Below are positions 6,001 through 9,000 of a stretch of DNA of 33,040 bases, in pieces (the first letter of the stretch is position 1; the number at the start of each line of letters is the position of its first letter). The stretch lies in IMG/VR virus record IMGVR_UViG_2671180631_000013; one strand, 5' to 3'. This stretch comes from a virus. Taxonomy: Duplodnaviria; Heunggongvirae; Uroviricota; Caudoviricetes. Made by a program: the position numbers.

Positions 6001-9000
6001 TCGTGGCGTTTTGTGTCTGTGGAGAAACTAACGCATGAACAGTTTAACGGCAAATAACCGTTTGTCGCAACAGCTGGTGGTCAGCGTCGCTGAACACCTG
6101 TTGTTACGGCATGAATGCAGATTACCAAATCACCTGGCTGTAAGTAACCACAGAGAACTTTACCTGACTGTGGGGGGCGAGTTGTGCAGGAACTTAACCG
6201 CTGGTTTCGTGACGGAAGAGGACTTTATGTTCATGTTATTCGTTGGGAGCCAGAAACACAGCGCGTTATCTATCTTCGCAAAGACTACCCGCATGAGTGC
6301 TTTAGTCCTTTGTGGAAATTCAGGCGTGATTTTGTTGAGTGTGAAGGACCACCAGCACATTGATTCTGCCATTCCGGGACGTTACACTGTTCAGGCACCT
6401 TATAAAGCGGGTGCCGGGATTGGCGTCCTGGAATTGATCAAGGCGATATATGACGCGCCAGCGTCTTTTTTATCGTCCGCATTTGCTCACATCAAAGTTA
6501 TGGTGGGCTGGGCGGGGGCATCGAAAGATGCGCCGGTTTCCTTGATCACCGGTTACGCCAACCCCGTTCAGTTCACCACCAGCGAAATTGGCGTTTCCGG
6601 TGGTGGAAGTATTTCACCGATCAAGGAGGCTGCCATCATGGCTACTGTCCCAGCCCTCACTCGTCTGAATGATGAAGACTTACATAAACTCAGTTATGTA
6701 ACAACTGCACTACGTGCTCTGCGCAAGGTAACTCTTTCGGATCCGCAGGCACATCAGGTTCTGGTAGAAACCCTTCTTAACTTGCAAGCTGAACGTATTC
6801 GTCTGGCGGATAAGGCTAATTTTCATATTCACCGTCTCCTGAATATCAGCGGAGGGCATCGTCATGCTTAATCCGTTGATCCTCAATATTTGCCGTTTGC
6901 TTCAGCGTAAAAAAATATCAATTCCTACAGTTGGGCAGTGGTACACCACGCCTGCAGGGCATGTTCTACGTGTTAGCCTGGTTGACCGTGAATGCCAGAA
7001 GGTGATTTGTGAACCGCTGGGCCGTAATTACCGCGTCAGTATGCCGCTTATAGCCTTTCGCTCCGGAAAAAACATGAAGCATCTCGGAGGTGCAGCATGA
7101 GTATGGAGCTGATGGTTAAAGCGATGAAAATTCGAGTGGGTAATCCATTGCGAAAACTGGTTCTGATCAAGCTGGCTGATAATGCCAGCGATCAGGGTGA
7201 GTGCTGGCCCAGCTACCAGCATATTGCTGACCAGTGCGAAATTAGCAAACGTTCTGTGATGAATCATATTGCGGCCCTTTGTGAGTCCGGGCTGGTAAAA
7301 AAAGTCACCCGGAAAGGTGAAAAAGGTAACTCAAGTAATATCTATCTCCTTCATCTGGATGGTGCAGGAGATTCACTAGGGGGTAGTGCAAATAATTCAC
7401 TATCTGGTGCAGCAAATTCACCAGGTAGTGCAGGAGTTGCACCAGGGGGTAGTGCAGGAGATTCACCCAGAACCAGTCACTCTTTTGAACCAGTCAAAGA
7501 ACCAGTCAATGAACCAATAGCTGTTGGTGCATCAGTTGATGAGTCCGTGCGAGTTCGTTCAAACCGACCGGAATACTCTCCGGAGTTTGAGCAGGCATGG
7601 CTGGCATATCCCAAACGTGCTGGTGGCAATTCAAAATCTGCAGCCTTCAAAGCCTGGAAAGCCCGTTTGAATGAGGGAGTAAACCCCGAAACCATGCTGG
7701 AAGGTGTGAAACGCTACGCGGGATGGGTATCTGCGATGGGTAACAGCGGCACACAATTTGTGAAACAGGCTGTCACGTTCTTTGGTCCGGATCGTCATTT
7801 CGAAGAATTCTGGGAAGTTCCTGCGGTATCTGCAGCCAGACGCGAGGACCCGTACTTCAAAGCCAGTTACGACAACGTGGACTACAGCCAGATCCCGGCA
7901 GGATTCAGGGGGTGATCATGAGTCTTTTGAATGAAGTTCAGAAATTCATTGAAGCCCATCCGGGGTGTACTTCCGGAGACATTGCGGATGCTTTTGCAGG
8001 TTACTCACGGCAGCGCGTTCTGCAGTCAGCAAGCAAGTTACGTCAGAGTGGGCGTGTGGCTCACCGTTATGAAGGAGATACACGCAGACATTTCCCACGC
8101 CTGACTGAGAGAGCGCAGGAGCCGGAACCACAACCAGTTCGTGAAACCAGACCTGTGCGCAATTTCTATGTCGGCACTAACGATCCCCGGGTGATTTTGT
8201 GCCTGACCCGCCAGGCGGAAGAACTGGAGTCCAGGGGCTTATACCGTCGTGCTGCAACGGTGTGGATGGCGGCATTCCGTGAAAGCCACTCCCAGCCAGA
8301 ACGAAACAATTTTCTGGCGCGTCGTGAGCGGTGCTTACGGAAAAGCAGCAAGCGCGCTGCATCGGGTGAAGAGTGGTATCTGTCAGGGAATTACGTGGGG
8401 GCTTAATGAGTAATAAATATTGCCAGGCGCTGGTGGAGCTGCGGAACAAACCAGCCCATGAACTGAAGGAAGTGGGCGATCAGTGGCGCACGCCGGATAA
8501 CATTTTCTGGGGAATTAACACCCTGTTTGGCCCGTTTGTTCTGGATCTGTTCACTGATGGTGATAACGCCAAATGTGCCGCTTATTACACTGCGGAAGAC
8601 AACGCGCTGGCGCATGACTGGTCTGAACGTCTTGCGGAGCTTAAAGGTGCTGCCTTTGGTAATCCCCCGTACAGCCGCGCCAGTCAGCATGAAGGGCAAT
8701 ACATCACCGGCATGCGTTACATCATGAAGCATGCCAGTGCCATGCGTGATAAGGGCGGACGCTATGTTTTCCTGATCAAAGCTGCCACCAGCGAAGTGTG
8801 GTGGCCGGAAGATGCAGATCATATTGCTTTTATTCGCGGGCGTATTGGTTTTGAACTGCCTGCCTGGTTTATCCCGAAGGACGAGAAGCAGGTGCCGACA
8901 GGCGCTTTCTTCGCTGGTGCTATTGCTGTTTTCGACAAGACCTGGAAGGGACCGGCAATCAGCTACATCGGGCGCGATGAACTTGAGGCATGTGGTGAGG

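Follow-up and report, generated by a model that had tools for sequence, protein, structure and literature searches.

A predicted replication origin within the initiator gene of an SfV-like temperate phage: iterons, recognition helix and a conserved junction element

How does a temperate phage with a lambda O-like replication gene, but no recognisable helicase loader or helicase of its own, specify the site at which its DNA replication begins? This question is raised by two tandem-repeat arrays inside the replication gene (7097-7915) of the Caudoviricetes virus record IMGVR_UViG_2671180631_000013, a stretch of 33,040 nucleotides (nt) that was analysed as a whole and is referred to here as the window. 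Over positions 6000-8500 the window shares 98.5% identity with the early-right region of SfV, a phage of Shigella flexneri, and about 96% with a group of Stx2c-converting phages (Stx, Shiga toxin). The SfV counterpart of the gene, orf39, is annotated 'replication protein' and has as its neighbours cI, cro, orf36, orf37 ('immunity region'), orf38, orf40 and dam.

It is well established that ori-lambda lies inside O and is bound by the O N-domain, and the origin of phages L and P22 has likewise been described as lying inside the initiator gene, gene 18 (bioRxiv 10.1101/2020.10.05.325894). An origin inside an O-like gene is in itself an expected feature; what goes beyond this expectation is a family architecture fixed to the base pair (bp), a correspondence between recognition helix and iteron, and a constant element of 35-38 bp amid modules that are exchanged around it. 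On comparative sequence evidence, the segment 7358-7519 is very probably the vegetative replication origin of this SfV-like phage, placed within the DNA that encodes the linker of its initiator.

Repeats in the linker-coding DNA and their match to the recognition helix

The first array consists of five 15-nt cores matching GTGCARRARWTKCAC, each with 0-1 mismatches (coordinates in Table 1). An earlier note on this DNA, which had placed two arrays at 7358-7516, was right about the five copies, but their start-to-start spacing is 24, 21, 21 and 24 bp and not the 21-23 bp it had given. The array was also recovered by Tandem Repeats Finder and by a repeat search. When both strands of the whole window were searched allowing up to 2 mismatches, 8 matches to GTGCARRARWTKCAC were found, compared with 1.87 +/- 1.34 in 100 shuffled sequences, none of which reached 8; the three matches outside the array are scattered, with 2 mismatches each, and do not form a second iteron cluster. 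Each core is a partial or perfect palindrome of the form GTGCA-N5-TKCAC, copy 4 (GTGCAGGAGTTGCAC) being the perfect one. The second array comprises three exact copies of GAACCAGTCA at 7470, 7487 and 7499 (spacing 17 and 12 bp) and a partial copy, GAACCAATA, at 7511, in agreement with the 'three and a half copies' reported before. Taken alone it is not significant across the window, as at least four matches with at most 1 mismatch occurred in 9 of 100 shuffles, and it is considered real because of its clustering and its conservation in relatives.

Both arrays do lie in the inter-domain linker of the initiator, as had been proposed. The Pfam matches of the N-domain (residues 17-85) are to HTH_36 (1.8e-11; 44.1 bits against a gathering threshold of 25) and DnaD_N (3.6e-05), and array 1 begins beyond their end at about residue 85. 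In the AlphaFold model the winged helix of residues 1-88 is confident (predicted local distance difference test, pLDDT, 75-87; topology H-H-H-H-beta-beta), residues 91-156 have a pLDDT below 50 and form a predicted disordered linker of about 65 residues, and a helical C-domain follows. The repeats translate as (G/S)A(G/N)(D/N)SP(G)G units and EPVK units, and because all iteron spacings in the window are multiples of 3, a DNA signal and a peptide repeat cannot be told apart from the window alone.

With regard to its family, the protein of 272 amino acids (aa) matched phrog_270 'replication initiation protein' (2.4e-88) and phrog_8540 (7.8e-62), within PHROG families described as 'replication initiation protein / O-like', and 5455 protein clusters match it at E <= 0.001. 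On the other hand, Pfam gave no match to Phage_rep_O (PF04492) even at E <= 10, and none to a Rep_3-type profile. The earlier proposal of an O-like initiator with the layout of ori-lambda is thus upheld by comparison as far as function and layout are concerned, but not as to family: to judge from its profile matches, the protein is O-like in function only and is a member of the HTH_36/DnaD_N family of phage initiators (PHROG 270, 8540, 391). In Foldseek the N-domain resembled winged-helix proteins, among them the DnaD N-terminal domain 2v79 and the initiator N-terminal domain 4pql/4pt7 (which we take to be RepA N-terminal domains of RepA_N plasmids), with E-values that were all weak. Over its last 130 residues the initiator matched phrog_26426 as well as the C-terminal part of phrog_1701 'DnaD-like helicase loader' (8.8e-33).

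The repeats were compared across 83 related loci, including the window; 80 of these came from a scan of one genome per species and represent Pseudomonas, Enterobacter, Kosakonia, Aeromonas, Shewanella, Marinomonas, Xenorhabdus, Erwinia, other Enterobacteriaceae and others. In nearly all of the 80, nt 262-380 of the gene contain 3-7 repeats spaced by 21-24 bp, and near-identical proteins of 242, 250, 272, 294 and 302 aa carry 1, 2, 5, 8 and 9 repeat units, respectively. The repeat sequence follows the recognition helix: helix ISKRSVMNHI is paired with the core GTGCAGGAG..CAC, IGRSTVKxH with GGGGCAGGAGCTGCCCC, IDRSTVRKH with GTAGGCCCAGAAAGCAC and CSKSAVRxH with TGCCG..GGCAC. In Mantel tests against the core of the last iteron, the helix/wing segment (residues 41-72) gave r = 0.53 (p = 2e-4), compared with r = 0.18 for the C-domain family and r = 0.11 for residues 1-40, and one helix class with one iteron was found on three different C-domain families.

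Two kinds of relatives separate the DNA from the peptide that it encodes. Two mosaic loci (P0072/L082 and P0066/L083) share the DNA of the window from GAACCAGTCA copy 2 onward (in L082 also from copy 1), while their N-domains differ from that of the window and entirely different repeats occupy the same place, namely five copies of CCCCTGTGYCGTCARAAAGCAYAG in L082, with spacings of 25, 23, 45 and 24 bp, and two copies of the palindromic GGTGGGGCAGGAGCTGCCC in L083. As the spacings in L082 are not multiples of three, the encoded peptide differs from copy to copy. Moreover, within the helix class of the window (ISKRSVMNHI and its close variants ISRRSVMNHV and ISRRSVINHI), the core GTGCAGGAGATTCAC is read as SAGDSP or as VVQEIHQ depending on phase (L087, L091, L097, L128 and L142, from Pseudomonas, Enterobacter and Aeromonas), and the occurrence of the same core in two reading frames indicates that the DNA is conserved and not the peptide. 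The repeat spacings of relatives also include 22, 23 and 25 bp, which put the same DNA into different reading frames.

The geometry is equally constrained. Among 79 loci, a core starts 17 bp from the junction that follows the array in all 79, 41 bp in 52, 62 or 63 bp in 66, 83, 84 or 86 bp in 66 and 104-108 bp in 30, and in 61 of the 79 the outer 5+5 positions of the last core form a dyad with 4 or 5 of the 5 positions matching. Mosaics, frames, geometry and co-variation are what one would expect of sites bound by an initiator, and together they exclude a purely peptide explanation.

Several further observations concern the repeat region and its gene. Some E. coli alleles amplify one iteron type (GSAGVAP three to five times, or GSAGVALGGSAGDSP twice) and not the whole array (P0024, P0021, P0020), which indicates that individual iterons can duplicate in tandem. 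In several relatives the initiator gene is broken at or near the runs of five G or five C that flank the iterons: L165 (3950-3965) has C6 in place of the usual C5 at the border of last iteron and junction, L116 has G4 in place of the usual G5, and in L167 (1340-1400) a stop codon falls where the wing ends; L112 was also considered among the frameshifted relatives. These broken alleles could reflect sequencing error, prophage decay or slippage-based on/off variation. A programmed +1 frameshift at CCC-AGA is conceivable, the +1 frame being open, although sequencing error or pseudogenisation is the simpler account of L165, L116 and L112. That +1 frame, in which some relatives read individual iterons, holds a 44-aa open reading frame (ORF) at 7386-7520 (+) in the window, running through iterons 2-5 and the junction and ending in VVQEIHPEPVTLLNQSKNQSMNQ*; it probably reflects a need of the iterons for two open frames and not a gene.

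The junction element

Directly after the last iteron, all 83 loci carry the element AGAACCAGTCACTCTTTTGAACCAGTCAAnGAACC, located at 7469-7503 in the window. When the loci were aligned on the end of the last iteron, the sequence AGAACCAGTCAC TCTTTT GAACCAGTCAA n GAACC and the preceding CC(C) showed at least 90% identity at most positions, and this conservation is independent of iteron class and of C-domain type. Owing to this independence, array 2 is not a second set of specificity iterons; the earlier view of both arrays as origin iterons can be maintained for array 1, which the comparison identifies as N-domain-specific, whereas array 2 belongs to a family-wide element. Only the first two GAACCAGTCA copies and the following GAACC are universal. 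The remaining copies form a lineage-specific extension, and near-identical IMG/VR loci hold 1 to 4 EPVK/EPVN units, so that their proteins are 268, 272, 276 or 280 aa long.

Codon usage points to selection on the nucleic acid. Synonymous codon identity, counted among identical amino acids with synonymous choices, amounts to 91% in the junction element as compared to 48% in the well-conserved N-domain codons 4-44, and in Pseudomonas loci (about 59% G+C) the junction uses AGA, AGT and TTT, which elsewhere in the same genes account for 1%, 2% and 7% of their codon families. Copies 1 and 2 of GAACCAGTCA, being 17 bp apart, are read in different frames (R-T-S-H and E-P-V), and the spacer codon between them varies (F/S/L/P) while the two 10-mers are invariant; it is this use of the 10-mers in two frames, together with the codon constraint, that argues for selection at the level of nucleic acid. 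The N-domain coding region showed no further islands conserved at the DNA level: third positions are conserved at 0.59 on average, with Met, Trp and just two other codons rising above the rest.

The element is widely distributed. A 38-nt junction query matched 139 phage records and 15 plasmid records, the former including phages of Vibrio (62), Escherichia, Salmonella (among them ST64B), Klebsiella and Aeromonas as well as Aggregatibacter S1249, cdtI and Min27. Among the matches listed, the junction lies under a gene annotated as replication protein, O-like, primosomal or helix-turn-helix (HTH) protein, or in unannotated sequence. On either side of this constant junction, iterons of more than 10 specificities and C-domains of at least 7 families have been exchanged.

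In the mean of 80 loci, the junction is the least stable 30-bp duplex within +/-400 bp (3.4-4.9 kcal/mol relative to the locus mean); the least stable 30-bp segment is centred 0-39 bp into the junction in 30 of the 80, and the family as a whole shows another dip in duplex stability, left of the iterons at -140 to -100 relative to the junction. In the window, the top strand of 7460-7519 is G-poor (GC skew -0.36, AT skew +0.31), and the single strand of the junction is unstructured, folding worse than shuffled sequence (z +1.67). An RNA structure was rejected on account of this poor folding and because the only Rfam match at E <= 1, to mir-875 over iterons 2-4 (E 0.071, 22 bits where the gathering threshold is 84), is a chance one. 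An inverted repeat formed by 7156-7165 and 7468-7477, a perfect 10-nt complement, was likewise set aside as chance, ACTGGTTC being present in the first 225 nt of 2 of 73 relatives.

Because the junction is, in the mean of the loci, the least stable duplex nearby, it is read as a putative unwinding site. The favoured interpretation is that it acts in unwinding and helicase entry, perhaps as the counterpart of the A+T-rich segment of ori-lambda. A broader proposal, to which we give slightly less than even credence, is that the 35-38-bp element at 7466-7503 may be a previously unrecognised essential cis-acting component, serving as the universal unwinding and helicase-entry cassette of the family across gamma-proteobacterial winged-helix initiators. 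By analogy with plasmid initiators, the invariant part of the N-domain might possibly bind it in single-stranded form.

A divergent case was seen in L170 (1440-1500), where an unrelated N-domain precedes a C-domain of the family of the window ('C0') and DnaC-like and DnaB-like genes follow, the initiator gene being frameshifted. At the position of the junction, this locus carries three copies of (G/C)(T/A)AAGGACTGA, which have the CAGTC core alone in common with GAACCAGTCA, on the opposite strand.

Proposed origin mechanism, competing explanations and helicase supply

A possible course of initiation can be outlined from these elements. To judge from gene order, transcription of the early-right operon would yield the 272-aa initiator, whose winged-helix N-domains, as suggested by the co-variation, would bind as dimers to the five dyad iterons situated 17, 41, 62, 83 and 107 bp left of the junction. 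The resulting nucleoprotein array would stress the adjacent, easily melted 35-38-bp element with its GAACCAGTCA repeats and lead to its opening, and the C-domain, carried on the disordered linker of about 65 residues, would then bring a DnaB-type helicase to the opened DNA. That helicase would be supplied by the host as DnaB-DnaC, the PerC-like gene and dam standing where relatives have DnaC-like and DnaB-like genes. The location of the origin in a disordered linker would allow slippage to alter the number of iterons while the protein is kept intact.

The supply of helicase distinguishes the window from its relatives. The C-domains joined to the unit of N-domain, iterons and junction belong to at least 7 unrelated families, of which one matches Pfam Phg_2220_C, another ('C2') is followed by a Pfam Phage_lambda_P gene and a third ('C4'; L097, L128) presumably resembles the C-terminal domain of lambda O, judged against the lambda sequence as we know it. 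The C0 family is found in 25 other loci, 24 of them assessable; within the next three ORFs, 23 of these have an IstB_IS21/DnaC-like ATPase and/or a DnaB_C helicase, and the remaining one has a lambda P-like gene. Enterobacter and Kosakonia relatives with such loader or helicase genes of their own have C-domains 56-59% identical to that of the window. In the window the corresponding slot is occupied by the PerC-like gene and dam, as it also is in L083, and by dam in L082. The Pfam and PHROG matches of genes across 6035-11600 are all to other families (Ash, an unknown family, PerC, Dam, the LexA DNA-binding domain, RusA, KilA-N and DUF968/HNH), which bears out the previous statement that no loader or helicase is recognisable there. 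A loader gene elsewhere, which would have spoken against that statement, was not detected either, as none was found in the whole 33-kb window (best E 0.2) when DnaB-like, DnaC-like, lambda P-like and primase-helicase proteins of relatives served as tblastn queries.

As neither a loader nor a helicase was found in the window, the phage would have to use host DnaB-DnaC. SfV is a plaque-forming phage, and if this holds, the initiator alone presumably engages host DnaB-DnaC through its C-domain; set against the norm of the family, such a loader-free state appears notable. Stand-alone C-domain proteins of about 112 aa (about 30 clusters) were considered as a separate adaptor, but both of those examined (L165, L167) turned out to be remnants of broken initiators. 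As a separate observation, C0 is also fused to Phage_rep_O (PF04492), DUF1376 (PF07120) and PF19808 N-domains (proteins P0199, P0201, P0157 and P0174), and it thus appears to be a mobile helicase-coupling module common to several initiator families.

A number of points weigh against this account of the origin. The Mantel test ignores shared ancestry, a caveat from which the mosaics and the frame changes stand apart. In the window itself, the stability minimum is at about 7334 (30-bp segments centred at 7331-7342 within 6869-8368) and not at the junction, and DNA opening could begin there, left of the iterons; besides, the junction is about 57% A+T, far below the A+T-rich region of ori-lambda. 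The 78-aa protein encoded at 6864-7100 could be an unrecognised replication accessory factor. In the literature searched, no report was found of binding, unwinding or origin activity for this initiator family, the Eru papers dealing with HTH_36 proteins of Stx-phage replication regions do not use the word 'iteron', and no paper containing the 18-nt junction core was found, although an earlier mention of the repeats is possible. Papers combining 'HTH_36' and 'iterons' are, by their titles, surveys of bacterial plasmids.

Could the repeats be nothing but a slippage-prone, low-complexity linker (GSAGDSP, EPVK) with no role as DNA, the origin lying elsewhere? The peptide repeats do resemble a flexible linker, the segment is predicted to be disordered, the copy number varies between strains as it does in microsatellite-like tracts and the iteron spacings of the window all keep the frame. 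Such an explanation is nevertheless highly improbable, since it is at odds with the out-of-frame spacings of relatives, with the co-variation of repeat DNA and recognition helix, with dyad cores held at fixed distances from the junction and with the excess of synonymous identity within it. It is also improbable that the iterons are initiator sites serving mainly for control, by autorepression, titration or handcuffing, and not for the start of replication. Iteron-plasmid repeats serve both the initiation and the limitation of replication, according to a review of the subject (PMC4980987), and copy numbers from 1 to 9 among near-identical prophage genes would suit a regulatory role. However, the window has no second iteron cluster and no nearby promoter-like site to repress, and an array that always lies 17 bp from a conserved element of low mean duplex stability has the anatomy of an origin.

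The remaining alternatives concern the junction. Rather than serve in unwinding, it might be bound by a conserved factor, either a host protein or a second, possibly single-strand-binding, surface of N-domain residues 1-45. We regard this as doubtful, though with real weight: a simple A+T-rich unwinding element would not need per-nucleotide conservation of at least 90% across distant hosts, a direct repeat of a 10-mer has the look of a protein site, and residues 1-40 are conserved (mean distance 0.17) in comparison with the variable helix (0.37). In addition, plasmid Rep proteins bind one strand of unwinding-element repeats in a sequence-specific manner, as has been reported (PMC4081077, PMC10602881). 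Against a factor site, no DnaA boxes, promoters or GATC clusters occur in or near the origin (the window has a single TTWTNCACA, at 21838), inspection by eye gave no convincing IHF or Fis consensus there and no protein partner can be named; a factor site would, moreover, be compatible with the unwinding model. Less credible still, and in our opinion unlikely, is that the junction is kept as a recombination 'linker' for module exchange, or that its peptide, PRTSHSFEPVxEP, is a functional motif. It is true that the junction is the exact point at which C-domains of at least 7 families meet iterons of more than 10 classes, always in the same frame, and that the mosaics L082 and L083 break exactly there. 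Yet the promotion of recombination alone would not be selective enough to keep 35 bp at least 90% conserved between genera, and selection on the peptide fails to explain the identical codons, the use of AGA, AGT and TTT at about 59% G+C, or a variable F position between two constant 10-mers.

Known systems, significance and gene neighbourhood

The proposed origin resembles ori-lambda in its location within the linker-coding DNA of the initiator and in its dyad iterons of about 20 bp, five here and four to six in the system compared. The likeness extends to iterons that are specific to the N-domain and vary between phages, to a segment on their right that here is predicted to melt easily and to a helicase-coupling C-domain. 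It differs from lambda in the N-domain of the initiator, which is of the HTH_36/DnaD_N and not of the Phage_rep_O type, and in that the plain A+T-rich tract of ori-lambda is replaced by a 35-38-bp element whose sequence, with its GAACCAGTCA repeats, is conserved across genera; to our knowledge, the GAACCAGTCA motif does not occur in ori-lambda. Unlike lambda and P22 (in which gp12 is a helicase), the window has no P, DnaC-like or DnaB-like gene. Prophage modules in which an HTH_36 initiator is accompanied by DnaC-like and DnaB-like genes (L085 of Enterobacter sichuanensis, L110 of Pseudomonas) agree with it in architecture, C-domain family, iteron layout and junction, the C-domains of the enterobacterial relatives being 52-59% identical to that of the window. 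Whereas these modules bring a loader and helicase of their own, the SfV type is 'initiator only' and has a PerC-like regulator and dam at this point; the expression 'initiator-solo' was not met among the papers listed in a literature search.

Similarities also exist with plasmids. Iteron plasmids (RK2 TrfA, F RepE, pPS10 RepA, R6K pi) have a winged-helix initiator, direct repeats about 22 bp apart and an adjoining unwinding element; in these plasmids, that element consists of short repeats (13-mers), Rep contacts single strands and the initiator recruits host DnaB directly. Their origins are intergenic and usually contain DnaA boxes, whereas the one proposed here is intragenic, with neither a DnaA box nor a Rep_3 match. 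RepA_N plasmids of Gram-positive hosts (pSK41, pTZ2162 RepA) carry iterons in the middle of rep, and their initiators have a DnaD-like winged-helix N-domain and an exchangeable, host-specific C-domain. The phage initiator is similar to these in having iterons inside its gene and a DnaD-like N-domain, 4pql/4pt7 being among its weak Foldseek matches, but there is no detectable sequence relationship and the hosts are different; we know of no conserved junction element in RepA_N plasmids.

Prediction of the origin site has implications for Shiga-toxin phages and related genomes. A precise 160-bp site would be assigned as the origin of SfV-like, ST64B-like, many Stx2c, cdtI and Klebsiella phages, which in SfV-like and related genomes is currently annotated only as 'replication protein' or 'HTH domain protein'. 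It has been reported that the replication-region type of Stx phages is linked to virulence (PMC8044961, PMC8951638), and that the types Eru5, 6, 8, 11 and 13 carry HTH_36 proteins (PMC8951638). The Eru typing papers deal with gene content only, without origin or iterons, whereas an origin site is proposed here; a known cis site and initiator specificity class would make the link to virulence testable for the HTH_36 types.

The family furthermore constitutes a natural series in which each winged helix has its own iterons while the scaffold stays constant and its geometry is fixed to the base pair; such a series is useful for the study of how initiator specificity evolves and for the design of mutually compatible replicons. 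If the junction is indeed a universal cassette, the table of helices and iterons would become a readable recognition code for mutually orthogonal natural origins, and the SfV type would show that an initiator alone can capture host DnaB-DnaC. In this regard, the loader-free SfV-type module offers a simple system for host helicase capture in which no P-like or DnaC-like adaptor takes part, and the family raises the question of why an origin needs 35 near-invariant bp across hosts as distant as Pseudomonas and Vibrio.

Table 1. Positions of the initiator gene, the elements of the predicted origin and neighbouring genes in the window
Feature	Position	Strand	Remarks
78-aa gene, function unassigned	6864-7100	+	phrog_1153, without Pfam match; stop overlaps initiator start (ATGA); SfV orf38
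Replication initiator gene, 272 aa	7097-7915	+	Counterpart of SfV orf39; 2.5-kb region about 98.5% identical; predicted origin inside
N-terminal winged-helix DNA-binding domain	7097-7360	+	Residues 1-88; recognition helix about 48-58 (ISKRSVMNHI); proposed iteron reader
A+T-rich low-stability segment	7320-7350		Left of iterons; encodes wing strand NSSNIYLLHL
Iteron 1 core GTGCAGGAGATTCAC	7362-7376	+	0 mismatches; 107 bp to junction
Iteron 2 core GTGCAAATAATTCAC	7386-7400	+	1 mismatch; 83 bp to junction
Iteron 3 core GTGCAGCAAATTCAC	7407-7421	+	1 mismatch; 62 bp to junction
Iteron 4 core GTGCAGGAGTTGCAC	7428-7442	+	Perfect 5+5 palindrome; 0 mismatches; 41 bp to junction
Iteron 5 core GTGCAGGAGATTCAC	7452-7466	+	0 mismatches; GGGGGT before, CC and junction after; 17 bp to junction
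Junction element CCC AGAACCAGTCAC TCTTTT GAACCAGTCAA A GAACC	7466-7503	+	Holds GAACCAGTCA copies 1 and 2; proposed unwinding/helicase-entry element
12-bp unit extension, lineage-specific	7499-7519	+	Third GAACCAGTCA 7499-7508, partial GAACCAATA 7511-7519; copy number strain-variable
C-terminal helical domain, family C0	7565-7912	+	Residues about 157-272; helices at 162-225; proposed helicase/loader recruiter
164-aa PerC-like gene	7912-8406	+	Start overlaps initiator stop; occupies slot of relatives' DnaC-like/DnaB-like genes
108-aa protein, LexA DNA-binding domain alone	9056-9382	+	PF01726 2.1e-19, without peptidase domain

As to the surroundings of the initiator gene, the protein encoded at 7912-8406 combines a MarR-like winged helix in its N-terminal half (phrog_1687) with a PerC/ANR-like C-terminal half (Pfam PerC, 7.7e-09). 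A terminator-like hairpin with a T-run occurs at 7305-7320 on the minus strand, left of the iterons and within the wing-coding segment; terminator-like sites in the region are at chance level (2 observed compared with 1.7 expected). The gene for the protein with a LexA DNA-binding domain, situated between dam and rusA, is kept in SfV (orf42) and in both mosaic loci, L082 and L083.

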